A stretch of 63,943 bases of DNA, filler included. It is 6 parts of 6 records of this genome, joined end to end, with 100 filler letters (N's around TTAATTAATTAA, not from the genome) between each part and the next. Parts side by side here need not be neighbours in the genome. Positions count along the whole stretch, not along the records: positions 1 to 12,675 come from DRR723986_4875; 5 more parts are not named here. One strand, given 5' to 3'. The stretch's first letter is position 1; every line of letters begins with the position of its first letter. The position numbers were made by a program, and so were the translations under genes. Shown here piece after piece: positions 2,958 through 22,340 of this stretch. The notes beneath the pieces are model-generated. The model saw only the letters and a list, made by a program, of their open reading frames with translations. It was not told the DNA's origin and did no database searches.

Positions 2958-3920
2958 TTAGTCGGCAATCAATTCGATTTCAAACAGCTTCGGCCAATTT
3001 TTTCCGGTTACGAACAGACGCTCATTGTCTGCATCCCAGGCAATGCCGTTGAGCACTTCGGCGCGGCCGGTCGGGTCTGCGGATGGAGCTAAAATGCCAT
3101 GCATTTTTATCAGTCCCGTCACGCGCCCTTTTGCGGGATCGATCCGCGCTATCATGTCAGTTGTGTAGACGTTCGCCCAAATTTCACCGTTAATATATTC
3201 CAGTTCGTTCAGGTTGTTCAGCGCAGTGGCACCATCATGTACTTCAATGCTGCGGCGCACGCTAAAGTCCTCCGGATCGCGGAACTCCAGCCTGGCCGAT
3301 CCATTACTCATTATAAGGTCAGTACCATCAAAAGTCAGCCCCCAGCCCTCACCGTTATAGCGCAAAGTGTCAATTGGAGCAAAACTTTTGCGGTCATAGA
3401 CAAAACAAAGGCCCGAACGCCAGGTCAATTGATAAATTCGCTGCCCTACAACGCTAAGACCTTCGCCAAAGTAGCGACCTGCCAGGTTGTGCTGCTGCAA
3501 TACTTCACCGCTCTCCAGCTTCACACGCCGCAAACTGGACTGGCCCCACTGCCCCGTGCTCTCAAACAACTCACCATCGATTACTTGCAGGCCCTGCGTA
3601 TAGGCGAACTGGTCGTGCGTAAAAACATTTAGAACTTCATAGCGGTAATTCCTGACAAATGCAGGTTCCTCTGCTACTTCTATCGGCTCAGGGCGGTCCG
3701 GCAGCGGGTTCTGGCCCGGCCGGGCCTCAGCAACAGGATTGGTGGTTTTACTGTCCGGCGCGGCAGCTGTTGATTTGCCACTTTCCTGCCCGCCACCACA
3801 GGCGAACAGCAACACGCTGCCGGCTGTAAGCACAAGTAAAAACAGTTGTGAGCGCCATGCCTGCGCAACATTACAAGTCTCAAAAGGCCGTGCCTGGCGT
3901 ATTTCTGGTGTCAGCTTCAT
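2958..3920 (-). CDS. Glutaminyl-peptide cyclotransferase (type I, beta-propeller), lipoprotein
   Basis: YTQGL, FESTG, FGEGL, EGWGL, LNELE, VLNGIA and TGKNW motifs; LFAC lipobox; exact start uncertain. Confidence 0.92.
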   Translation of the reverse strand: MKLTPEIRQARPFETCNVAQAWRSQLFLLVLTAGSVLLFACGGGQESGKSTAAAPDSKTTNPVAEARPGQNPLPDRPEPIEVAEEPAFVRNYRYEVLNVFTHDQFAYTQGLQVIDGELFESTGQWGQSSLRRVKLESGEVLQQHNLAGRYFGEGLSVVGQRIYQLTWRSGLCFVYDRKSFAPIDTLRYNGEGWGLTFDGTDLIMSNGSARLEFRDPEDFSVRRSIEVHDGATALNNLNELEYINGEIWANVYTTDMIARIDPAKGRVTGLIKMHGILAPSADPTGRAEVLNGIAWDADNERLFVTGKNWPKLFEIELIAD

Positions 3921-4350
3921 GTCATTATAATATGGGCCATTTTACAGAGGCAATCTGTGGCATACACTTGAGCTGCATTGCCACAGGTTCTTCGTTATTG
4001 ACAGCAGGAGATTTAGACGCAGATGTGCACCGCCAAATTTGAGCCGCCTGAACTTGGTGCCAAACTGCACAAGACCGTACTCTCAAGCAGGGCTGCAGGC
4101 CCCAGGCCGTCCTGGATTCAGAAACACAAGGCAGCGCCGGTGCAGTCGGGTTTTGCAGTCTGAAGAATTGAAGGATTACAATCGGCTTGAGAATACCCGC
4201 TGGAAGCGGCTCAAGGAGCGTTTAGTAGCAGCTTAAATAGTTCAAATCTCAAGTGTTCGCGGCTTCTGCGTTCGCCATGGTGGTTCAGACGTAAAAATGC
4301 AAGCTGATACCCTTATAAATATTTGAGGCATGTGTACTTTTTGGTACAAA

Positions 4351-4565
4351 TCGGCGAATTTAGGACGCAAACACTGAATTGCGTCCTATAATTCATCGAA
4401 AAAACACCGTGTGATTTCCTTATTGGCGTGAAATCGTACGATTCCCTCGGATACGCTTCTCTCAGAATTTGGCAGAGACTACATCCGACAGTATATTTAC
4501 GACAAATGAATTCGGCGGCAGGGTTTGTTTACACTGCCAAAATCTTGCACGCCGAATTCATTTTC
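4351..4565 (+). ncRNA. Candidate structured non-coding RNA (four consecutive hairpins ending in a U-tract)
   Basis: Stems at 4361-4388, 4408-4440, 4447-4488 and 4504-4563; mismatches in the second and fourth stems read as G-U pairs on the + strand; no ORF. Confidence 0.35.
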
Positions 4566-4679
4566 TTGATCAAAGTGGTGAGTTGACCTAAGTGTCCGCG
4601 CTGATATACCAATCTTGCTGACGCCATTTTGTTACCAACATATCCGATGACACTGCCATATTTTCGGTTTGGTAACTGG

Positions 4680-4892
4680 TCATTCTTCGTTTTCATCAAG
4701 TCCCAAGAGATGAATGTACTCTGTTTGCGGACCAAAATGGGTTGTAACGTCCAGGAGCAATTGCTGATCTGAATGTACCGCCTGAATTTCAGGCTGATGA
4801 TCTTGCTCCATGATACGGATTTCGTCGATGTGATATTCGCCTGGGCTAACAATTACTGTCAAGTAAAGAAGGATGCTCAATAAGACTGTCAT
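4680..4892 (-). CDS. Small 70-aa protein with hydrophobic N-terminus and acidic, His-containing C-terminus
   Basis: MTVLLSILLYLTVIVSPG leader; AGGA SD upstream; hairpin 4631-4676 directly after the stop codon. Confidence 0.7.
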   Translation of the reverse strand: MTVLLSILLYLTVIVSPGEYHIDEIRIMEQDHQPEIQAVHSDQQLLLDVTTHFGPQTEYIHLLGLDENEE

Positions 4893-5068
4893 GGCGTGTA
4901 TTCCTGAAAAAGATTAGGACTGTGAAAAAGTACTTGCTACGAAGCTACACTGCTGCTTCAAAAAAATGTACCGAAAAGTACGGCCGCAATACCGCTTGTC
5001 ATTCAAAAATGTTATCTTAACCGAAGGCAATAACTTGTCATCAGTTGTCACTATCCGGCAGTGGTCTC

Positions 5069-6649
5069 ATGACTATCATCAGCGAAATTTTTGCGTTTAT
5101 CAAAACGAAATCCAGCCGCAAGCACCCGGCGCTGCGCTATTTCTTTAAATCTGACGCCAAGTACACCAAGTTGCTCGAAGGATTTACGAGCGGTGCATAT
5201 CGCGATGATAATGACGCGGCACTCGATTTGTACGGCACCGATGCCTCAGATCAACGTTATACAAACACGAAACATCGACTGATGAATCAGTTGATTTCGA
5301 CCACCTTATGTCTGAACATAGAACAGCCGGCCCACTCCGAATACCTCACAAATCTTTACAACGCTAAACGTGAACTTTTTGCAGCCGAAGTTTTTCAAAG
5401 CTTCGCAATGCATGATTCTTACTATTTCGTTATCCGCCGAGTACTGCCCAAGGCTATCAAATATCAGACTACGGATATCCAGTTGCGCTGCCACGAGCTC
5501 CTGCGCGACTACTATTCGATGTACGGCCCGGCGCACAAAGCCGGCGAACATGCCAAACAAGCCATGCAGCTCGCGGAAGTGCGTGTAGAGGAAATTCACG
5601 CTGCCAATACTCGCAATCGCATCATTGCTGAGTTTTCGCACAAAACGGAACCGCGCCCGGAACTGGCCAAGGCCCTGGAAGAAGATTGTGAACGCATTCA
5701 TACTGCAATTGAGAAAACTCAGTCGCGCGCGCTCATTCTCAGCGGCACTTCAACGCGCGGATTCCTGCTGCAACTTTATGGACGCTGGGAAGAAGCCCGC
5801 GAGGTCTTCAAAAGCCAACTGGCGTACCTGGATGAAAATCCACATCTCTCCGGCCCCAATCGGCGCACCCCGGCCTGCCTGAACATCGTCGTCTGCTCAT
5901 TATTTTTGCGCGACTACGAAACCGGCTTCAAGTATGCTGAGGAAGGTTTTGACAAACAGCGCAAAGAATCGGCTAACTGGTACAACTTTGCCCAGTGTTA
6001 TTTCCTGCTGGCCATGCATGCCGGAAATCATGCAAAAGCCGCCGAAATTTTCCGCCTCGTCATTTCACGCTCCAAATTCAGACGCTCCGCCACCCGCGTA
6101 GAGCTCTGGCAGGTCTTTGAAGGGTACCTGCGTTTTGCCTTGGGGCCACTGGAAGAGACGCAGATGCCGGAACACATCACCATCTACGGACGCAAATATA
6201 ATATTCATCGCTTCCTGAACGAAGTCCCAACCTTCCAGCAGGATAAACGCGGTGTCAATATCGCCATTCTTATCGTCCATATTCTTTTCCTCCTGCGCGA
6301 CCGCAAATTTGAACCGCTCGACAGCCGCATCCGCTGCATACAGGAATACATGAGCCGTCAATTGCGCCGTGACGATGGTTACCGCATCTACTACCGCACC
6401 GAATTGTTCATGCGCATGTTACGCGTCATGAAAAACAAGGAATATAATTACGCCGCTACCAAGGCACGCGCAAAACGCTATCTCGATAAACTCCACGAAA
6501 CTGCTGCGGTTGACCCTCAGGGTGATCCACGCGCATTGGAAGTGATTCCCTACGAGCAAATCTGGGACGGTATTATACGCGAACTCAAGGCCATTGAGCA
6601 GGAAGGTTGCCTGGTTCAAGCCCATTCCGATCGCCTCGAACACGCCTGA
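5069..6649 (+). CDS. Uncharacterised all-helical protein, putative N-terminal winged-HTH plus TPR-like repeats
   Basis: Long ORF with helical repeats (GRWEEAREVF, RDYETGFKYAEEG, GNHAKAAEIF); N-terminal DDNDAALDLYG..YTNTKHRLMNQL resembles a wHTH; ATG at 5069. Confidence 0.6.
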   Translation: MTIISEIFAFIKTKSSRKHPALRYFFKSDAKYTKLLEGFTSGAYRDDNDAALDLYGTDASDQRYTNTKHRLMNQLISTTLCLNIEQPAHSEYLTNLYNAKRELFAAEVFQSFAMHDSYYFVIRRVLPKAIKYQTTDIQLRCHELLRDYYSMYGPAHKAGEHAKQAMQLAEVRVEEIHAANTRNRIIAEFSHKTEPRPELAKALEEDCERIHTAIEKTQSRALILSGTSTRGFLLQLYGRWEEAREVFKSQLAYLDENPHLSGPNRRTPACLNIVVCSLFLRDYETGFKYAEEGFDKQRKESANWYNFAQCYFLLAMHAGNHAKAAEIFRLVISRSKFRRSATRVELWQVFEGYLRFALGPLEETQMPEHITIYGRKYNIHRFLNEVPTFQQDKRGVNIAILIVHILFLLRDRKFEPLDSRIRCIQEYMSRQLRRDDGYRIYYRTELFMRMLRVMKNKEYNYAATKARAKRYLDKLHETAAVDPQGDPRALEVIPYEQIWDGIIRELKAIEQEGCLVQAHSDRLEHA

Positions 6650-7144
6650 CCTCATAATACTTTAATCAGTCCATGCCGCCATGTCATGCAGTTGCATTGT
6701 GTAATTATTACCATGCAGCGATTGCCTGTCAAACGTTCGCGCTACAGTTTCAGCCAAAACCCCCTGACTAACTCTTGGACTAACTCTCTGTCTAATCATG
6801 AGCGCCGCGCCTTCTCTCCGGCTACACCGGATTCGCATGCTAGCTTCTTTTTCTTTTGTTAATAAACGCTCCACAAGACTCAAACAATCCAGCCTGCCCC
6901 ACTCCACACAGGCACAAAACCACCAGCCTATACAATCAGTGATTAACAAGAAAATCGCACAAGCCTGAGACCATCAAACGACCAGCGGGAAGTGACTGGG
7001 CTCAAAGCGCCAATCCCAGACTTCAGATTCGCGTCAAATAGTAAAATACGGCAGCATAAACTTCACAAGCGCAAATCAAACGAATCTCCGCAAAAGCCGG
7101 CACACAGCTTAACAAACGCTAATCCACACAGACGGCTTAACAGC

Positions 7145-7174
7145 CACAAACTTAACAAGCACAAACTTAACAAA
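7145..7174 (+). repeat. 15-bp tandem repeat CACAAACTTAACAAR x2 with degenerate upstream copies
   Basis: cacaaacttaacaag-cacaaacttaacaaa; related cttaaca words near 7108 and 7136. Confidence 0.6.
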
Positions 7175-7176
7175 CA

Positions 7177-8460
7177 TCAGTCAGAATAGGTAACGGTCAA
7201 AGTGACAACTAAAAGTTGGCCGGAGTCAGTCTGGAAAACCATCACAGAATCAGCGGCGTAGTCTGCGATATTTTTCTCAACAAAATCAACAGCCGATTTC
7301 TTTTCTTCCATCATTAACGAAGAACGCTCAAACGTGGCACGCAGCTTGCCGCCAATCGTGCGGACGAGTTCGCCAAACAGCTCAGCACAATCACTGCGCG
7401 AAGGGTTGGCGCCACCCAGAACCAAGGTAGTTAAGTCGTTGGCATCTACGCGCGAAGTAGTTAACAGCAAAGCCGCGCTAACGCCTTTACCACTATCTTC
7501 CAGAGTCATCAAGGCTTCCAGCTCCAGCAACACATCGTTGGCCAAATCCGATTTGGCAATACGCACTTCAGACTGCGCCATCACACCAATCGTCTGGTTA
7601 ACTGCCTTGTAAATTTCCTGCGGCAACTGCTCGGTCAGGAATTGACGCGGATTATCGGCCGTATCCTCGCCGTCACCCGCAAAGGTGTTAAAACGCTCCA
7701 GAAAAGTCTCAGGCACAAAAGTCTGGGCAATGTGTCCGTTAAAAAGTTCTTTATTATACTCGGTGTTATTATCGCGACTTAACAAAACGATGCGCACATC
7801 GGCACCGGCACTTTCGCGCAGTTTCTGCGCCAGCATTTCTTCGTTAAGCAAAGGCAAATCTTCGCCAATGAGCACCAGACGCGGATGTTCAGAAAGGAAA
7901 ACTTCAAGTCCCTCAGCACCGCTCTGCGCCATTAACACGCCAAACCGTTTTTCGAGCAAATTAGAACAAAACTTCAGGAAGTTTTCATCGGCACAGGCCA
8001 CCAGGACCTTGTCGCGATTCGTAAAACGCACCGTCATACGTTTATGTCCGCGCGCCTCACTTTTAATATTATCGATTAACAGGCTAAAGCGGGTGAGCGC
8101 AAAGTCATAATCGAGCGGTTTAAGAATGTAGTCGGAAACACCAAATTCCGTCAGGTCCTGAAATACGCGTTTGGATTTAGCGGCGGTCAGTACTATGACG
8201 GGCAGATAGGAAAATTGGGGGCAGCTGCGCAGGGCTTCCAGAACTTCACTGCCGCCCATGACCGGCATGTTTAAGTCCAGAACCACAAAGTCCGGCGCAT
8301 CGCGTTCGATAGCCTGCAGGCCTTCCAGCCCATTACGCGCTTCGGAAACCAGCACGCCAAACTTTTTTTTGAGCAAGGCGCGCAGATACGTACGATCCGC
8401 TTCACCGTCATCAATCACTAAGGCGCGCATGGCACGTTTTTGCGCTCCACTATCTCTCAT
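7177..8460 (-). CDS. Response regulator: REC + pseudo-REC + CheX/CheC-like domain
   Basis: Canonical REC (VIDD, VLDLNMP, LTA, KP); second REC lacks the acceptor Asp; C-terminal FGELVRTIGG resembles CheX. Confidence 0.8.
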   Translation of the reverse strand: MRDSGAQKRAMRALVIDDGEADRTYLRALLKKKFGVLVSEARNGLEGLQAIERDAPDFVVLDLNMPVMGGSEVLEALRSCPQFSYLPVIVLTAAKSKRVFQDLTEFGVSDYILKPLDYDFALTRFSLLIDNIKSEARGHKRMTVRFTNRDKVLVACADENFLKFCSNLLEKRFGVLMAQSGAEGLEVFLSEHPRLVLIGEDLPLLNEEMLAQKLRESAGADVRIVLLSRDNNTEYNKELFNGHIAQTFVPETFLERFNTFAGDGEDTADNPRQFLTEQLPQEIYKAVNQTIGVMAQSEVRIAKSDLANDVLLELEALMTLEDSGKGVSAALLLTTSRVDANDLTTLVLGGANPSRSDCAELFGELVRTIGGKLRATFERSSLMMEEKKSAVDFVEKNIADYAADSVMVFQTDSGQLLVVTLTVTYSD

Positions 8461-8514
8461 CTTCGGGCTCCGCTCTCACTCAGGAATACGTGATGCATAC
8501 TGGAAATGGCATTT

Positions 8515-9699
8515 TCAGGACAAGTGCGCGGCATGCAACTGTGGCTCTACTCCGGGCTGCTCACATTCAACGGGGCGGACGTGCATGCCTGGCAGTCTAA
8601 AACTGAAACAGCTACCGGCACCGGGTTCGGCTGAACTCTCAACTTGCACTGATCCGCCGAGTTTTTCAACAATTTTCTTAACAATCGAGAGCCCCAGGCC
8701 ATGCCCATGAGCATTTAAACGTGCGCCATTGTTGCGTGTACTAAAGATATGCGCCTGATCCTCAGGCCTTATGCCGTCGCCGTTATCACGCACCCAAAAA
8801 CAAACCTCACCTGACTCTTCGCTTGTAGCTCCCAGCTGAATCTGCGCTGGATTGCCGCCGTAGTTGATTGCATTGGCAATATAGTTTATCCAAACTTCTT
8901 CCACCCAGGGCGCATAACCGGCGGCGGCGGGCCAGGACTCCGGCCGCGAGATCGTAGCACCGGACGTGCTAATCTGATGTTCCAGACTCTGCAGCGCCTC
9001 GTGTACAATTGCGCCCATATCCAGCACCATGCGCGGTGGAGCCTGATGATCCATCGTCGCCAGCAGTAAAATTTCTTCAATCACGCGGTCCAGCTTACGG
9101 CCGCCACGCACCACCGAGTCCAGATAACGCTTTGACTCTGATTCCGAGAGCTCTCCACCTTCTTCCTGCATGATGCGGGCGATGCCGATGATGCCGTTGA
9201 GCGGTGCTTTCAGATTGTGTGCCACGGTGTGCGCATAATCTTCCAGGTCCATATTTTGCTGGAGCGTAGCCCGGTGTGTTAGCTCGGCGCTGCGCGCGCG
9301 TCCAATTTGGCGGACGGCACGTGCTACCTGGCGCGCCAGGTTAGGATACTCATAGGCTTGACCGCCCAGCGTTACCAGACATAAAGGTGCACGAAACTGT
9401 GCTTCCAGAGCTGGATCAATGCGATTTTTCTCGGCATCCGCCGGTGCGATTACAAAGATTTGCACGGCATTCGGGTCATAGTCGGGACCGAGCACAAATT
9501 CGCGCACGTCTTCGGGTAGTTTCTCAGCGGCAATCACAACGGCAGAGGTCCGGCGATGCTGGACAATCGCCAGCAGCTCTCCTGGATCCTCCAGCAAGAG
9601 CGGCGGCAAACCGAGGTCAACTTCGTTAAAAGCCTTGAGTAATTTAGACTGATGCGCTTCTGTGATCGCGAGCAAAACCTGACTGCTAAAAACCTGCAT
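8515..9699 (-). CDS. Cytoplasmic sensor histidine kinase (HisKA + HATPase_c)
   Basis: H-box AHNLKAPL, N-box NYIANAINY, G1 DNGDGI, G2 GHGLGLSIV; likely ATG at 9699. Confidence 0.9.
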   Translation of the reverse strand: MQVFSSQVLLAITEAHQSKLLKAFNEVDLGLPPLLLEDPGELLAIVQHRRTSAVVIAAEKLPEDVREFVLGPDYDPNAVQIFVIAPADAEKNRIDPALEAQFRAPLCLVTLGGQAYEYPNLARQVARAVRQIGRARSAELTHRATLQQNMDLEDYAHTVAHNLKAPLNGIIGIARIMQEEGGELSESESKRYLDSVVRGGRKLDRVIEEILLLATMDHQAPPRMVLDMGAIVHEALQSLEHQISTSGATISRPESWPAAAGYAPWVEEVWINYIANAINYGGNPAQIQLGATSEESGEVCFWVRDNGDGIRPEDQAHIFSTRNNGARLNAHGHGLGLSIVKKIVEKLGGSVQVESSAEPGAGSCFSFRLPGMHVRPVECEQPGVEPQLHAAHLS

Positions 9700-9948
9700 G
9701 TGGTTATGAACCTTTATCCACCGGCCTGCCGCAGCACTGCTTTCGGGGCAATTAACACATTCCGCCCTAGTCAGCTTACCTGCAGACAACCAGTTCAACA
9801 CGTCTAAAAAAAATACGAGACCACATAATGCCGCTGCATGGCTGAATCCTACCATGGGCATTCTATATTAAACTAATTGTACTCGTTAACTTGCCTTGAA
9901 AACTTCTGGATCGCTACCAATAAGGGCAGCTGGGCTGTGAATGTAAGC

Positions 9949-17305: not shown

Positions 17306-18130
17306 TTATGCCGCGACGCGTCGCAGTTCGCGCTCACGCTGGATGATTTCAGACGCAAGCCGCAGATAGGCCTGGCTGCCGGCACATTTCAAATCGTAAA
17401 GCAGCGCCGGCTTGCCATAGGACGGAGCTTCCGAAATGCGAACGTTGCGCGGAATGATCGTTTCGTAAACCGCATCACCCATGGTTTCGCGCACATCGGC
17501 GACCACCTGGCTGGAGAGGTTGTTGCGGCTGTCGTACATGGTCAGAACGATGCCATGGATGCTGAGTTCAGGATTAAGCGCGTTCTTGACCTGCTCAACC
17601 GTGCTGAGCAACTGGCTGAGACCTTCAAGCGCGAAGAACTCGCATTGCAGCGGCACCAGGATGGAGTGCGACGCGGACAAGGCGTTGATCGTCAGCAGGT
17701 TCAGTGACGGCGGGCAGTCGACCAGCACGTAGGTAAAGCCGATCTCCTGGAACAGACGCGAATGGGTCAGGTTTTCGATGGCACTGCGCAGGCGGAACGC
17801 CCGGTCACCCGTGGAGGCGATTTCCAGTTCGAGTCCCAGCAGATCCATTGTGGACGGCGCCACCCAAAGACGCTGCACCGCTGTTTCGCGAACGGCCTCT
17901 GCAAGGGAGCAGTCGCCGCTCAGAACTTCATATGTCGACAGACCACGGTCGCGATGCTCGATACCCAAACCCGTTGAAGCGTTACCCTGCGGGTCGAGGT
18001 CAATCACCAGAACTTTTTCGCCAATCGCCGCAAGCGCCGTGCCGAGGTTAATGGCGGTCGTGGTTTTGCCCACCCCACCCTTCTGATTCGCTAGCGCGAG
18101 AACGCGCGGCATTTCGGGAAGCATGCTCAT
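17306..18130 (-). CDS. parA: Chromosome partitioning ATPase ParA
   Basis: NQKGGVGKTTT, DLDPQGNAS, DCPPSL. Confidence 0.99.
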   Translation of the reverse strand: MSMLPEMPRVLALANQKGGVGKTTTAINLGTALAAIGEKVLVIDLDPQGNASTGLGIEHRDRGLSTYEVLSGDCSLAEAVRETAVQRLWVAPSTMDLLGLELEIASTGDRAFRLRSAIENLTHSRLFQEIGFTYVLVDCPPSLNLLTINALSASHSILVPLQCEFFALEGLSQLLSTVEQVKNALNPELSIHGIVLTMYDSRNNLSSQVVADVRETMGDAVYETIIPRNVRISEAPSYGKPALLYDLKCAGSQAYLRLASEIIQRERELRRVAA

Positions 18131-18149
18131 TGCTACAACACCTTCCTGG

Positions 18150-18806
18150 CTACTCCGGCCGGGCTGAAATATTCGAGAAAAGAAGCATCCGGCTCATTGG
18201 ATCAACAAGACTGTCTTTTTCTATCATGTCGAACTGCCAACGGGCAGTAGCTTCGTTAACTTCTCGCTGAAAATCCTGACCTTTGTGGAAAACAGCCTTT
18301 GCGCCGGCTGCCGTAAACGGCTCTGAAAGCTGAAAAAGCAGATCCAGCGACGCCAAGGCGCGCGCAGAAACAGCGTCCACCTGGCCGAGCTTCCAATCTT
18401 TCGCAACCGATTCGATCCGGCCAGGATGCACTGTCCCCTTGGACCCTGTCTCCCTTAAGGCCGTTCTGAGAAATGCCACCTTGCGCTGGTTGCTCTCGAT
18501 CATGTGCACATGTGCGTCCGGCTCATCGGCGAGCAGGATTGCGGTCACCACACCGGGAAACCCGCCGCCACTGCCGATATCAACCCAGGTCCGCGCTTCC
18601 GGATAACACCACTGGGTTTGGAGGCTATCCGCCACGTGACGGGTCCAGATATCCGGGATGGTCGACGGTGCAATGAGGTTTTGCGCAGGCTGCCATTTCA
18701 GAACGAGGTCGACGTAGATCTGGAGTCTATCCAACGTTTCACGTGAAACATCCCCAAACTTATGCACAACCTGTCCAGAGGTATTCAACATCACCGGGCG
18801 GCCCAT
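18150..18806 (-). CDS. rsmG: 16S rRNA m7G527 methyltransferase RsmG (GidB)
   Basis: RHVADS, DIGSGGGFPG, VSARA. Confidence 0.97.
   Translation of the reverse strand: MGRPVMLNTSGQVVHKFGDVSRETLDRLQIYVDLVLKWQPAQNLIAPSTIPDIWTRHVADSLQTQWCYPEARTWVDIGSGGGFPGVVTAILLADEPDAHVHMIESNQRKVAFLRTALRETGSKGTVHPGRIESVAKDWKLGQVDAVSARALASLDLLFQLSEPFTAAGAKAVFHKGQDFQREVNEATARWQFDMIEKDSLVDPMSRMLLFSNISARPE
18735..18750. promoter_or_regulatory. parS site (perfect 14-bp core, inside rsmG)
   Basis: cGTTTCACGTGAAACa. Confidence 0.92.
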
Positions 18807-20692
18807 CAGGCAGCCCCTTTCTGGCTCTGGCGCTTTAGATGCGACAGGATCAGCGTGAGCGCGGCGGGTGTCATGCCATCCATGCGAGAAGCCTGGCCAA
18901 GAGTGGCCGGGCGAATGTCGATCAGTTTCTGGCGCACCTCATTGGAAAGACCAATGATCGCTTCGTAGTCGAAACCATCCGGGATCGACAAGGCTTCATC
19001 GCGTTTCAAGGCTTCGATATCTGCCATCTGACGATCGAGATAAACGGCATAAAGCGCATCTGTCGCAACCTGCTCCGCGATCGCCGGATCAATATCTTTC
19101 AGTTCGGGCCAGATGTCCGTCAGGCCCTCGAAGGTGACATTGGGATAGGACAGCAGATCGAAGGCAGACCGGCGAATGCCATCCTGATTTACAGGCAGGC
19201 CCTTCTTCTGAGCTTCGGAAGGCGTCACGGTCAGTGTCGTCAGAAGTTCCCGCGCAGTGGCGATCCTGGCCATCTTGTCTTCAAAGGCTTCTCTACGTGT
19301 GGAGGAGACGCACCCGATGCCGATGCCCAAAGGGGTCAGGCGCTGGTCCGCATTATCCGCCCGCAGAGACAACCGGTACTCTGCACGCGACGTGAACATG
19401 CGATAGGGTTCGGTGATGCCCCTGGTGATCAGGTCATCGATCATGACACCGATATATCCCTCGGACCGATCAACCACGAACGGCGCCTTGCCGGCAGCCT
19501 TCAGAGCGGCGTTGAGCCCGGCCACAAGTCCCTGTGCCCCAGCTTCTTCATACCCGGTCGTACCGTTGATCTGGCCGGCCAGGTAAAGACCCGAGCACCG
19601 CTTGGCTTCCAGTGTCGGACGCAGCTCGCGCGGGTCGACATGGTCATATTCAATCGCGTAACCCGGCTGCAGCACCACCACATCTTCCAGACCCGGAATG
19701 GTCTTCAGAAACGCTAACTGCGCATCTTCCGGCAACGATGTGGAAATGCCGTTCGGATAGACGGTGTGATCGTCCAGTCCTTCCGGCTCCAGGAAAATCT
19801 GGTGCCCGTCCCTGTCACCGAAGCGAACGATCTTGTCTTCGATTGACGGACAATAGCGTGGCCCCCGACCCTTGATCTCGCCTGAATACAAAGCGGATCG
19901 AGAAAGGTTCTCACGAATGATGCGATGGGTCTCGGGCGTCGTGCGTGTGATGTGGCACGGGATCTGAGGTGTCTCGATCCTGTCCGTCAGAGTGGAAAAC
20001 GGAATCGGGTCGTCATCGCCCGGCTGCTCTTCCAGCCTGTCCCAGTGGATCGTCCGGCCGTCCAGCCGCGCGGGCGTACCTGTCTTGAGACGCCCAAGAT
20101 CGAAGCCGATTTCCTCCAGTGATTCAGACAGCCCGAGTGCCGGCGCTTCGCCGGAGCGTCCTGCGGGTATCTTCCTGTCACCGATATGAATGAGGCCCCG
20201 GAGAAATGTACCGCTCGTCAGCACGATGGCGCGGCAGTTGATCACCCGGCCATCGGCCAGTTCGATACCCGAGACAGAACGTTTCTCGCTGTCACCCGCA
20301 AACCGAATCTTGTGGGCTTCACCTTCAACGACGCTCAGACCTTCGACAGCGGCAATCTCACGCTGCATCGCTTCCCGGTAGAGCTTGCGATCTGCCTGCG
20401 CGCGCGGACCACGCACCGCCGGTCCCTTGCGCCGGTTAAGCATGCGGAACTGGATCCCGCCCTTGTCGGCAACACGCCCCATCAATCCATCAAGCGCATC
20501 GATCTCGCGAACGAGGTGCCCCTTCCCCAGACCACCGATGGCAGGGTTACAGGACATCACACCGATGGTATCGAAGCGATGCGTGACCAGAGCAGTCGCG
20601 GCGCCAGCGCGTGCCGATGCCGCTGCAGCTTCACAGCCGGCATGACCGCCACCAATCACCACCACATCGAATGTCAGGTCCAGTTCGTTCAT
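18806..20692 (-). CDS. mnmG: tRNA uridine modification enzyme MnmG (GidA)
   Basis: [45 protein letters not shown]. Confidence 0.99.
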
Positions 20693-20919
20693 AGTCTCTA
20701 CCGCTCACGAAACCCGACAGCAGAGCCTCGGGTCCGGGTTTTTCCGGTTCGGTTTTCGGGATCTTTCTCCAGCCTAGGCCAGACTATCACAGGCCGCGCA
20801 AACCGGCACTTGTTCGCCGAGACTTATACGTGTGACGCAACTGAAGGTCAAAGCGGAATTCCGGTCAGCAGGCAAATCGTCTGGTGGCGTAAGTCATTTT
20901 GCACTTACGGCAGAGAAAA

Positions 20920-20935
20920 TGATTCACGTGAAACA
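20920..20935. promoter_or_regulatory. parS site (GANTC variant)
   Basis: TGATTCACGTGAAACA. Confidence 0.85.
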
Positions 20936-20972
20936 TGTTCCGGTAGAGAATCGATCCGCAGTTCGCCTGAGA

Positions 20973-20988
20973 TGATTCACGTGAAACA
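20973..20988. promoter_or_regulatory. parS site (GANTC variant)
   Basis: TGATTCACGTGAAACA. Confidence 0.85.
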
Positions 20989-20990
20989 GG

Positions 20991-22340
20991 TCATTTCCCG
21001 ATGCAAAAATCCCGGAAGATCACATCGAGCAAATCCTCGACATCGATCCTCCCGGTGATCCGCCCGAGAGCATCCGCAGCCCGGCGAAGGTCTTCCGCTC
21101 GCAATTCCGCCGGCAGGTGCACCATATCCACGGCAGCTCTCAGGCCGGACAGACAATCCTTGAGATAGTGACGGTGCCGTTCCCGGGTGGCCAGTGGTGC
21201 TTCGCCGACAGATATCGTTTCCTCGGCAAAACGGGTAAGCCGGGAAAAAAGCGGGTTCATACCTTCAGCGCTTTTGCTGGAACAAGCAATTTCCTGGATC
21301 GTTCCGGAAGAGTCTTGTTCCGGAAGAGTCTCAAGATCAGCCTTCGTTCGAACGGTCCAGACAGGCACGCTACGGCGAAGGTCTTCCGGAAGGCCGGCGA
21401 CGACATCGTCCTGTTCCACCCCACCAGGCTCCACCGCCCACAGGATGAGGTCCGCTCCCCGGCCCCGTTCCTCCGCCCGGCGTATGCCTTCCTTCTCAAC
21501 CAAACCCTCCGCCTTCCGGAGGCCGGCGGTATCGACAAGCGTCACGGGATACCCTGAAAGATCCAGATGAACCTCGATCACGTCCCGGGTCGTTCCGGCT
21601 TCTTCCGTGACGATGGCGACCTCCCGTCCTGCGATGGCATTCAGGAGACTGGACTTGCCGGCATTGGGTGCCCCCATCAGCACCACCTGCAAACCGGAAC
21701 GCAGACGCTCGCCGCTGCGGGATTTCTCAAGATGATCTGCAATCTCGTAATGCAGCTGGGTTGCTTCCGCCCAGACTTCATCGGCCACGCTGCCAGGAAC
21801 ATCCTCTTCATCGGCAAAATCGAAGTCTGCCTCGATCATTGCGCGCATATGGATGAGACGCTTTCTCCAGTCGTCGTAGAGCTTGCCGAGGGCTCCACCC
21901 ATCTGACGGACTGCCTGCTTACGCTGGCTCTCGGTCTCTGCAGCGATGAGATCTGCCAGGCCCTCGACTTCCGTCAGATCCATGCGGCCACGATCAAAAG
22001 CGCGGCGCGTGAACTCCCCTGCCTCGGCCGGACGGCAATTGGAAAAACGGGAAAGCACGGACAGGAGGCTTGAGACAACGGCACGTCCACCATGGCATTG
22101 GAACTCGGCAACGTCCTCTCCGGTGAAGCTGGAAGGTCCTTCGAAGTAGAGTACCAGAGCCTCGTCGAGAACGTCCTTCGTTTCCGGATCCCGGAGCTTG
22201 GCCAGCATCGTCTTCCGCGGCTGTGGCACCTTGGCAGCCAGTGTCTCAACGATCTCCCTGGTATCTGGACCAGACACACGGATCACCGCAACGCCCGAAG
22301 GCACAGCTCCACTGGAGAGCGCAAAGATCGTGTCAGCCAT
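20991..22340 (-). CDS. mnmE: tRNA modification GTPase MnmE (TrmE)
   Basis: SFTGEDVAEFQCHGG, GAPNAGKSS, GTTRD, DTAG, FCIGK C-terminus. Confidence 0.99.
   Translation of the reverse strand: MADTIFALSSGAVPSGVAVIRVSGPDTREIVETLAAKVPQPRKTMLAKLRDPETKDVLDEALVLYFEGPSSFTGEDVAEFQCHGGRAVVSSLLSVLSRFSNCRPAEAGEFTRRAFDRGRMDLTEVEGLADLIAAETESQRKQAVRQMGGALGKLYDDWRKRLIHMRAMIEADFDFADEEDVPGSVADEVWAEATQLHYEIADHLEKSRSGERLRSGLQVVLMGAPNAGKSSLLNAIAGREVAIVTEEAGTTRDVIEVHLDLSGYPVTLVDTAGLRKAEGLVEKEGIRRAEERGRGADLILWAVEPGGVEQDDVVAGLPEDLRRSVPVWTVRTKADLETLPEQDSSGTIQEIACSSKSAEGMNPLFSRLTRFAEETISVGEAPLATRERHRHYLKDCLSGLRAAVDMVHLPAELRAEDLRRAADALGRITGRIDVEDLLDVIFRDFCIGK

Follow-up and report, generated by a model that had tools for sequence, protein, structure and literature searches.

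Within the 63.9-kb window, by which we mean the whole stretch of DNA that was analysed, a large gene on the + strand (5069-6649) and a small open reading frame (ORF) on the − strand (4680-4892) face away from each other, with 177 nt between their starts. The large gene, an ORF call, encodes a putative receptor-regulator (hereafter receptor) of 526 amino acids from its ATG, which is taken as the start as homologs align from it; an alternative TTG at 5045 would extend the protein to 534 residues. The small ORF, supported by ORF calling, a hidden Markov model (HMM) of the peptide family and alignments, encodes 70 amino acids and is a candidate pro-peptide gene. The two are separated by a divergent intergenic region (4893-5068) with blocks that are conserved in orthologs, presumably a promoter/operator region, and the 3' end of the small ORF points towards a conserved noncoding element of 240 nt (4330-4570), which is tentatively assigned here to the + strand. 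The other neighbours of the pair are ordinary chromosomal genes, with no phage context. The initial annotation had described a 526-residue helical-repeat protein, a divergent 70-residue ORF with a hydrophobic leader and an acidic C-terminus, and hairpins on the opposite strand into which this ORF points, and all of these are present.

The AF2 model of the receptor is entirely helical (25 helices, pLDDT 81.5, pTM 0.79). Model and fold matches together suggest an N-terminal four-helix domain similar to the helix-turn-helix (HTH) domains of sigma region 4 and LuxR-type regulators (residues 1 to ~88), followed by a TPR-like superhelix (residues ~90-515) as the sensor part. Searches with the receptor yielded only sub-threshold TPR matches in Pfam and none in NCBIfam, the receptor profile recovered only designed TPRs among the PDB sequences (all E above 0.01), and Foldseek retrieved no PDB structure at E up to 0.001 with the full model. 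The caution in the initial annotation that no homology to RRNPP proteins had been demonstrated thus still applies to the Pfam, NCBIfam and PDB profile searches. In a VIA fold comparison of the full model against 48,161 chains, for which a best Z of ~14 is usual with helical repeat models, RapI ranked first (Z 17.9, 302 aligned), followed by Rap of pLS20 (17.4) and by peptide-bound Rap of phi105 (16.9). Further RRNPP matches were NprR-NprX (16.4), RapH (15.2), AimR (14.7 and 13.8) and PlcR-PapR (11.6), with AimR 5zvv being the one that spans model residues 1-508. Generic TPR proteins score amid these matches (LGN 16.6, Pins 16.1, MalT domain III 14.9). According to the model, the receptor is therefore a TPR-type superhelix with RRNPP receptors among its top fold matches, alongside generic TPR proteins, and the fold prediction that had been suggested as a check did return an HTH combined with a TPR-type fold.

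The N-terminal domain was modelled as four helices (pLDDT 77.8) with no beta strand. DNA-binding domains of the sigma region 4 or LuxR type make up approximately 25 of its best 50 fold matches, for example EsrB (Z 5.8) and region 4 of SigE on DNA (Z 5.7), and several of the best sigma region 4 matches are complexes with anti-sigma factors. The best Z scores of only 5-5.8 are too low to exclude other HTH classes, including the XRE type. Foldseek found no match in the PDB for the domain model at E up to 0.001, and no HTH, sigma or LuxR family was detected when 36 N-domains were compared with Pfam. An hhalign comparison of the N-domain profile with one sigma factor aligned it to region 4 at a non-significant probability of 0.7%. 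The family alignment has the consensus ...LKSRxRxRLLN, which we take to resemble the recognition helix of region 4.2, and residues E175, W347, K393, G395, N397 and R443 of the receptor are invariant in the family. The domain looks like a sigma region 4 or LuxR-type HTH with predicted DNA binding. Of the winged HTH initially proposed for this N-terminus, the helical domain with HTH proteins as best matches is retained, but the wing is unsupported because the model lacks a beta strand.

The small ORF is both conserved and coding. It is equally long in the orthologous loci L001 and L002, which differ from each other by 4, 1 and 14 nt at the first, second and third codon positions, respectively, resulting in three amino acid changes; we read it as coding because the changes fall mainly at third positions. 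In the window it is the sole match of the peptide-family HMM (E 2e-17). Its product starts with a hydrophobic leader (residues 1-18), which is followed by an acidic middle part that is conserved, by a 'PQTEY' motif and by a variable tail (...IHLLGLDENEE). This tail, which differs between paralogs and is encoded by the last 11 codons of the small ORF (4683-4715, − strand), may be the ligand or specificity part. Residues 2-15 are hydrophobic and contain no K or R, and the remainder has 13 D/E against a single R. In the aligned peptides, the leader is atypical for a Sec signal. It lacks a basic n-region and frequently has an acidic residue at position 2 or 3. The small residues after the hydrophobic stretch (SPG, SSA, GG) are, in our reading, like the c-region recognised by signal peptidase. 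The peptides of Chitinophagales are only 21-25 aa long, are often encoded divergently from the receptor gene and mostly lack the hydrophobic leader; they have a basic N-terminus, an aliphatic C-terminal part and an acidic end (IVIIDxDEL), and their micro-ORFs vary synonymously. In Adhaeribacter or Hymenobacter, peptides derived from the tail would include ones ending in ...WDDxN. The short tail is the only part of the peptide conserved throughout the family; the rest vanishes in the 21-aa forms. Other readings of these proteins were rejected: a ClpXP degron, as only one clade has clpX in the neighbourhood; a prepilin-like leader, as no glycine precedes the hydrophobic stretch; and a lipoprotein, as a cysteine follows the leader in L050 and L051 only.

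The receptor family, whose related loci were searched for with seven sequences, holds ~3,900 clusters at 50% identity, nearly all from Bacteroidota. We found a small ORF on the opposite strand, at most 1.3 kb upstream of the receptor gene and matching either the peptide HMM or a C-terminal pattern, at 47 of 75 evaluable loci, a count that is not made up of independent cases because the loci are related to each other. The C-terminal pattern, which was written after the data had been seen, matches 39 of 1,969 frames in the upstream zone versus 23 of 22,471 elsewhere (odds ratio 19.7). The HMM detects 24 frames inside this zone and one outside, the latter at L031, where the gene start is misassigned, and in loci left out of its building it still gives E values of 1e-7 to 1e-14. 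Among 30 loci from five genomes, the peptide gene is upstream and divergent in 23, downstream in two and absent from five, and the 5.6-Mb genome G001 has a divergent upstream small ORF at 14 of its 16 paralog loci. The 28 evaluable loci with no peptide by these criteria belong mostly to Saprospiraceae, Lewinellaceae and Phaeodactylibacter, and inspection of Saprospiraceae-type loci by eye revealed no convincing small ORF. Thus, the survey of homolog neighbourhoods proposed at the outset links a homologous small ORF to the receptor gene across distant clades of the family. Within 142 neighbouring ORFs from 24 loci, there is no conserved exporter, protease or modification gene and no PptAB- or Eep-type gene. 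A gene for an SBP_bac_5 (OppA/DppA-type) binding protein follows the peptide gene on the same strand after 9-86 nt at all three Cytophagales loci, which is a hint of import.

Receptor genes can occur in multiple copies: the five genomes of relatives from which the paralog counts are taken have 17, 15, 10, 1 and 13 family matches. The peptides of the paralogs have the hydrophobic leader and middle part in common and differ in the last 8-11 residues; in an alignment of 14 peptides, which match each other from end to end, column conservation drops to 20-30% over the last ~8 columns. One of about seven ortholog pairs between G001 and G002 that were compared by eye, L095 and L096, has flanks of ~93% identity and a peptide gene that is 97-100% identical except for the last nine codons. 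Here, the intergenic region and receptor residues 1-390 share only 35-70% nucleotide identity, while receptor residues 391-521 are again ~100% identical, a pattern that appears pherotype-like in its switching. At two loci labelled as Kapaibacterium, three ORFs share a C-terminal nonapeptide within a genome, with a different nonapeptide in the other genome. A larger ORF also carries this ending, with 114 aa from the first start codon (132 between stops) at L057 and 117 aa between stops at L061. At the sequence level, paralog expansion and divergence confined to the tail fit a receptor-ligand pair.

The intergenic region is 65% identical to that of L001, compared to ~40% for the flanks. In a Chitinophagales member, three GTGAC sites are candidates for binding by the regulator. 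A 15-bp motif is present in two copies that agree at 14 of 15 positions, one at the 5' edge of the noncoding element (GTACTTTTTGGTACA, 4334-4348, + strand) and an inverted one within the intergenic region (GTACTTTTCGGTACA, 4967-4981, − strand), 75 nt upstream of the small ORF ATG and 88 nt upstream of the receptor ATG. With up to two mismatches allowed, the 63.9-kb window contains two matches versus 0.01 expected. The initial annotation had one such motif ahead of both units, and both copies are indeed in place, but neither L001 nor L002 has preserved the motif at the corresponding positions.

The noncoding element is better conserved than the small ORF (73% and 62% identity to L001, respectively, with ~40% in the flanks). 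It contains hairpin 1 (4361-4388, a perfect 10-bp stem), promoter-like boxes on the + strand found by a promoter scan (4469-4497), and hairpin 2 (4504-4563, a perfect 14-bp stem) followed by a T-run. Hairpin 2 extends to ~26 pairs on the + strand (dG −32.2, z −6.6; −26.7 and −4.5 on the − strand). Two G-U pairs and the T-run of hairpin 2 speak for the + strand and a single hairpin 1 position in L001 for the − strand, in a covariation sample of three sequences, two of them nearly identical, that is too small to settle structure or strand. A search of positions 3900-7300 against Rfam 15 gave no match at E up to 1, and five Chitinophagales loci gave none at the gathering score. By blastn against 80 loci, the element was found at L001 and L002 and at none of the 78 others, and whole-genome searches recovered one copy each in G001 and G002, at the orthologous locus, while G003 and G005 yielded no copy. 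When metagenomes were scanned with a conserved 17-mer of the element, 82 stretches (80 loci) were returned, all of them chance matches of 20-25 nt. A small RNA transcribed from the + strand, 65 or 215 nt long and ending at ~4570, is possible. Because these searches recovered it from no locus but the orthologous one in the two closest genomes, the element appears to be a lineage-specific neighbour, possibly with a small RNA as output, rather than a core part of the module. For the same reason, the three-part analogy to arbitrium drawn earlier does not hold for the family.

We favour, with a probability of roughly 55%, a two-gene cassette of cognate peptide and receptor-regulator that works in an RRNPP-like way. 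The large protein would be a cytoplasmic regulator whose sigma-4/LuxR-like HTH binds DNA, with the divergent intergenic region next to its own gene as the probable site, and whose ~420-residue TPR-like superhelix serves as the sensor. The small divergent gene would encode the precursor of the cognate ligand, with leader and middle part serving its production and processing and cleavage possibly occurring close to the PQ(L/V/T)E(F/Y) motif, which is conserved. The C-terminal 8-11 residues, variable in sequence and aliphatic then acidic, would be recognised by the TPR groove, thereby switching the regulator. In the favoured, RRNPP-like route, the protein would be exported, the tail peptide released and re-imported, and the regulator then bound. 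We infer DNA binding, tail-receptor binding, processing, export and import for this cassette. Small protein and receptor are probably direct partners through the tail, while action of the peptide from outside the cell is plausible at slightly less than even odds. Compared to the RRNPP-analogous circuit of the initial annotation, this reading keeps the fold class and the divergent small gene and gives up the wing and the RNA part.

Direct partnership does not require a signal between cells, and the small protein may instead act as an antagonist within the producing cell, either tethered to the membrane by its N-terminal helix, with its acidic tail on the cytoplasmic side, or free in the case of the 21-25-aa forms. 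It would sequester the regulator in the way that an anti-sigma factor holds sigma region 4. We consider this unlikely, even though the N-domain resembles sigma region 4 with several best matches in anti-sigma complexes, the leader is without the basic n-region of a Sec signal, no conserved exporter is nearby, and co-divergence of tail and receptor would fit it as well as it fits signalling. General tethering is impossible because most Chitinophagales micro-ORFs lack the hydrophobic helix. The small residues past the hydrophobic stretch, as in a signal-peptidase c-region, and the peptide genes placed ahead of the OppA-type gene at three of three Cytophagales loci also speak against an antagonist, as do up to 17 private pairs per genome; many private pairs per genome are the pattern of secreted-pheromone families.

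Divergent regulator-target gene pairs are common, and the HTH-TPR protein might simply control the small gene, with its TPR domain sensing something else and the small product being an exported or membrane effector, such as a bacteriocin-like or surface peptide. The conserved blocks within the intergenic regions would suit such a pair, and the Kapaibacterium nonapeptide that also ends a larger ORF (L057, L061) could make the tail a sorting or processing tag. Still, an independent target would not be expected to alter its last nine codons only, alongside sensor and operator, and the family conserves just the short tail, with the remainder shrinking to nothing in the 21-aa forms, so that this explanation seems quite improbable. 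Far less credible is a type I toxin-antitoxin-like unit, in which a hydrophobic peptide would be controlled by a convergent small RNA and the large protein would be a mere neighbour. The small ORF does have a hydrophobic N-terminus, and a convergent promoter-like site and terminator-like hairpin lie on the other strand, but element and ORF do not overlap (109 nt between them, 117 nt from the stop codon to hairpin 2). Moreover, the element occurs only at the orthologous locus while the pairing of ORF and receptor is family-wide, and type I toxins are unlike long acidic-tailed proteins such as this one. Just as slight is the chance that the peptide is a RiPP precursor and the large protein its TPR-type scaffold or recognition protein: leader and C-terminal 'core' give the short peptide the look of such a precursor, but the 142 neighbouring ORFs of the 24 loci include no conserved gene for a modifying enzyme, a peptidase-ABC exporter or another biosynthetic function, and the large protein has an HTH-like domain.

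The favoured cassette resembles RRNPP systems in its predicted TPR fold and adjacent pro-peptide gene and differs from them in sequence homology. With Rap-Phr, NprR-NprX and PlcR-PapR it appears to share the TPR-type fold of a cytoplasmic receptor, which gave the top fold matches of the model, an adjacent small gene whose C-terminal end is the proposed ligand, and numerous paralogous pairs in a genome, whose peptide ends diverge and show pherotype-like switching. In contrast to these systems, with which it has no detectable sequence homology, its receptor is longer (~510 aa), its leader lacks a basic n-region, its peptide gene is divergent and upstream, and its hosts are diderm Bacteroidota instead of Firmicutes. 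RRNPP proteins begin with an XRE-type HTH (PlcR, NprR, Rgg, PrgX, AimR) or the three-helix bundle of Rap, whereas the HTH modelled here resembles sigma-4/LuxR domains, at low Z. The 21-25-aa peptides of Chitinophagales are reminiscent of the short hydrophobic peptides of the streptococcal Rgg-SHP and ComR-ComS systems, which need no Sec signal, although the tail here ends in acidic residues and the receptor is not Rgg-like in sequence. Likenesses to arbitrium are AimR among the fold matches and the candidate small RNA beside the pair in the window, but the context is chromosomal and not that of a phage, gene order and strands differ, and the RNA is limited to one orthologous locus. In PrgX-PrgQ of pCF10, convergent transcription forms a switch, and a similar arrangement might arise here if transcription from the + strand promoter (4469-4497) continues past hairpin 2, which would produce antisense RNA across the peptide gene in the direction of the receptor gene. 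Sigma-70 region 4 and LuxR-type regulators are similar through the fold matches of the N-domain, and ECF sigma factors with C-terminal TPR extensions exist; unlike sigma factors, the receptor has no sigma region 2, and it gave no Pfam match to sigma or LuxR families.

Peptide signalling via TPR receptors in the cytoplasm is regarded as characteristic of Firmicutes and of their phages and plasmids. A large RRNPP survey analysed Firmicutes genomes only, and our literature search found no description of such a system in Bacteroidota. More speculatively, and with the odds somewhat against it, Bacteroidota, above all Chitinophagales, Kapaibacteria-like organisms and Cytophagales, may run a large undescribed form of RRNPP-analogous peptide communication between cells, with another kind of DNA-binding head, no detectable homology and up to ~17 private channels per genome. 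New pherotypes would arise by joint replacement of peptide tail, receptor sensor part and operator, and one channel in the lineage of the window would have gained a small-RNA output. If true, this would add a major mode of communication to a phylum abundant in soil, water and wastewater and would offer a natural collection of peptide-receptor pairs that are distinct from one another. As the ~3,900 receptor clusters are without annotation and have a candidate ligand next to the receptor, the question is directly testable in cultured species, and the family is found in the cultured Adhaeribacter terrigena, A. terreus and Hymenobacter profundi.

The large gene (526 aa, 5069-6649, + strand), encoding a protein with a probable HTH and TPR-like repeats, and the small ORF divergent from it (70 aa, 4680-4892, - strand) belong to a well-supported family of receptor and cognate-peptide cassettes that is without annotation. 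The 1.15-kb interval that separates the large ORF from the glutaminyl cyclase gene (2958-3920, -) has a G+C content of ~0.43 compared to ~0.53 in the surroundings. This interval contains the small ORF, whose start lies 177 nt from the large ORF, and further left two perfect inverted repeats (4361-4388 and 4504-4563). A 15-mer at 4334-4348 recurs as an inverted copy with one mismatch at 4967-4981; with ≤2 mismatches allowed, the 63.9 kb contain just these two matches (0.01 expected). Both ORFs, the inverted repeats, and the repeated 15-mer of the initial annotation are thus real features. Homologs of the large protein align from the ATG rather than from a TTG further upstream (5045).

Searches with the large protein yielded only sub-threshold TPR matches in Pfam, no match in NCBIfam, and only designed TPRs (E above 0.01) in a sequence-profile search of the PDB. 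Among the 30 nearest ESM Atlas clusters, 29 are unnamed "hypothetical proteins" with no common Pfam family and Bacteroidota as the commonest source. The AF2 model, built from a 17-sequence alignment, is all-helical (pLDDT 81.5, pTM 0.79), and Foldseek found no match to it at E ≤0.001. An exhaustive VIA search, in which a best Z of ~14 is typical for any helical repeat model, returned RapI (Z 17.9, 302 residues aligned), Rap of pLS20 (17.4), phi105 Rap with its peptide (16.9), NprR-NprX (16.4), RapH (15.2), AimR (14.7 over model residues 1-508; 13.8 for a second entry), and PlcR-PapR (11.6), together with the generic TPR proteins LGN (16.6) and Pins (16.1) and MalT domain III (14.9). The model is therefore best described as a TPR-type superhelix compatible with the architecture of RRNPP receptors, the Rap/Rgg/NprR/PlcR/PrgX-type peptide receptors of Firmicutes, the fold scores being no proof of kinship. 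Modeled alone (AF2, 36 sequences), residues 1-95 form a bundle of six short helices with zero strands (pLDDT 77.8); sigma region 4 and LuxR-type DNA-binding domains account for about 25 of the 50 best VIA matches (Z 5-5.8), and a weak Foldseek list points in the same direction, which makes an N-terminal HTH likely. From the original "wHTH-TPR" description, the probable HTH and the TPR-type superhelix can be retained, and a winged form is not supported by the strandless model.

A word-indexed search with the large protein found 17 relatives and a one-genome-per-species scan 112, with 80 loci kept. By record title, these come from Chitinophagales, Saprospiraceae, Lewinellaceae, Cytophagales (Adhaeribacter, Hymenobacter), and Kapaibacterium. 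The bins of L001/L004/L031 and L041 bear Hyphomicrobiales and Bifidobacteriaceae titles in a family otherwise confined to Bacteroidota; the first bin has 15 copies, and these labels are probably wrong. An exhaustive profile search gave 3,879 clusters at 50% identity (E ≤1e-3; 2,031 at E ≤1e-30), and nearly all of the 150 matches listed are 490-545 aa long. Five genomes contain 17, 15, 10, 1, and 13 family matches, respectively, and several loci have tandem receptor genes (L006, L017/L031, L053, L065, L067). The database protein P0062 (1032 aa) is of double length and was matched twice by the receptor-family profile.

The 70-codon ORF is kept at the same place in L001 and L002, the closest relatives of the window (receptor 73% identical to that of the window), and the two copies differ by 4, 1, and 14 nt at codon positions 1, 2, and 3, resulting in three amino-acid changes. 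Judged by its sequence, the small ORF is a coding gene that travels with the receptor gene. Divergent upstream ORFs of the first locus set can be aligned with it over the full length and have three parts in common: the leader (M..LL.A.L..LG or SPG), the acidic middle (H..EI...DP), and an end that is first aliphatic and then acidic. Under fixed criteria (HMM E <1e-3 or the C-terminal pattern), 47 of 75 evaluable loci have a small opposite-strand ORF no more than 1.3 kb upstream. A locus counted as evaluable if its upstream sequence was 400 nt or longer (too short in five loci; L077, where no family ORF was located, was dropped). Three further loci (L031, L035, L053) look positive by eye. By these criteria the peptide is absent from 28 of the 75 loci, mainly Saprospiraceae, Lewinellaceae, and Phaeodactylibacter, where visual inspection revealed no convincing candidate either. 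The C-terminal pattern, composed after examples had been seen, matched 39 of 1,969 frames in the upstream zone vs. 23 of 22,471 elsewhere; for the peptide HMM the numbers are 24 frames vs. 1, with 23 matches being its own seeds and the loci mutually related. In unseen loci, the HMM reached E-values of 1e-7 to 1e-14. Among the 30 loci of the whole-genome-search set, about ten of which are also in the first set, the peptide is divergent and upstream in 23, downstream on the same strand in two, and missing in five. With nine added loci, genome G001 has the peptide at 14 of 16 paralog loci.

Variability is concentrated in the tail, the last 8-11 residues of the peptide. Fourteen peptides (13 from G001 and that of the window) align end to end and are conserved through a PQ(L/V/T)E(F/Y) motif, with column identity falling to 20-30% in the last ~8 residues. 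In the orthologous loci L095 (G001) and L096 (G002), the flanks are ~93% identical and the peptide genes 97-100% identical save the last 9 codons (YIVISEEPED to YVNILQDPSD); nucleotide identity is only 35-70% over the intergenic region plus residues 1-390 of the receptor, and receptor residues 391-521 are ~100% identical. This pair thus contains two separate diverged patches, the peptide tail vs. the operator with the receptor HTH/sensor block, with a conserved stretch between them. Such a mosaic is the trace expected of a change in peptide-receptor specificity, here in a single case; the tail is unchanged in the remaining G001/G002 pairs compared by eye. In each of two Kapaibacterium-labelled loci, an identical C-terminal nonapeptide terminates two small ORFs upstream of the receptor gene and a larger one downstream of it (L057:5468-5866, L061:2815-3168; 114 aa counted from the first start codon in L057, 117-132 aa from stop to stop). 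The nonapeptide is IVIVDQNEL in one of these genomes and VVIIDHSEL in the second. Proteins of more than one type may carry this tail.

In the Chitinophagales cluster, the ORF comprises only 21-25 aa, either M(K/R)..LP.K.PV.AIVI(I/V)DxDEL or leader plus tail as in MDRVLYSILLALGFSNIVIIDMDEL, and is located 300-400 nt upstream with synonymous third-position variation. The tail is therefore the sole part kept family-wide. Just 3' of the micro-ORF stop is a 33-nt block, TCGTGAACCTAATTTATGAAACAAACCAACTGT (L007:3446-3478, 11 nt past the stop), also found at the same place in L008-L016, L018, L021, L023, L027, and L040. It is near-invariant in 14 of 17 aligned loci and followed by a hairpin and T-run on the micro-ORF strand; Rfam had no match to the block. 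This 3'UTR is better kept than the micro-ORF itself, which suggests a dual-function RNA. Three conserved GTGAC sites between micro-ORF and receptor gene (e.g. L007:3630-3955), one of them inside TAnnTTTGTGACA ~60-90 nt upstream of the receptor ATG at the expected place of the Bacteroidetes -7 box, are candidate operator half-sites. A Gp49/HigB-like and HTH_3 pair of toxin-antitoxin type is encoded between clpX and the micro-ORF (L007:2588-3233, -).

A core role in the cassette, as initially proposed for the structured RNA, was not borne out. The noncoding element (4330-4570) is 73% identical to L001, compared to 62% for the small ORF and ~40% for the flanks, and includes a conserved promoter-like TTGGCA-17-TATATT (4469-4497, +), which also fits the Bacteroidetes TTTG/TAnnTTTG pattern. 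Hairpin 2 (4504-4563) folds better on the + strand, its pairing in L001/L002 being preserved by two G-U pairs specific to this strand, and a T-run follows; one L001 position in hairpin 1 favours the - strand instead. Together, the promoter-like site and hairpin 2 make a 65-nt RNA plausible, with a candidate of ~215 nt if the TACTTTTT box of the 15-mer were the promoter. Rfam had no family match to the element. It occurs once each in G001 and G002, confined to the orthologous locus, and metagenomes yielded no further copies; it is therefore not a core cassette part. The 15-mer, described as preceding both units, is a statistically real pair in the window and is not kept in L001/L002, where the sequence at the orthologous positions has changed and an equivalent repeated motif is also absent.

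As far as sequence can tell, the cassette works like RRNPP systems, and we infer that the peptide is exported, imported, and bound by the receptor. The homology test does not place the family among RRNPP systems, from which it also differs in DNA-binding head, leader type, and host phylum. A literature search revealed no account of a system of this kind in Bacteroidota; the RRNPP_detector survey is reported to cover complete Firmicutes genomes only (PMC10075063), and passages on RiPP clusters in another study have no bearing on this receptor-peptide family (PMC10352776).

Pfam assignments for 142 ORFs from 24 loci revealed variable housekeeping neighbours and no conserved modifying enzyme, peptidase-ABC exporter, or protease. 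In all three Cytophagales loci, an OppA/DppA-type SBP_bac_5 gene lies 9-86 nt behind the peptide gene(s) in the same orientation (L068:1670-3647, L069:1325-3302, and L071:704-3019, the last with two peptide copies), with a permease gene next in L068. Response-regulator or histidine-kinase genes often lie near the receptor gene (window, L001, L022, L036, L053), also in several distant members of the family. In the window, a response-regulator gene, whose long C-terminal part has no assignment, and a histidine-kinase gene follow it at 7177-9861 (-), and such a pair also follows the receptor gene at L001:5847-8356. Elsewhere in the window, parA-like, rsmG (gidB), mnmG (gidA), and mnmE genes are clustered at 17309-22340 (-), a grouping usual near the chromosomal origin.
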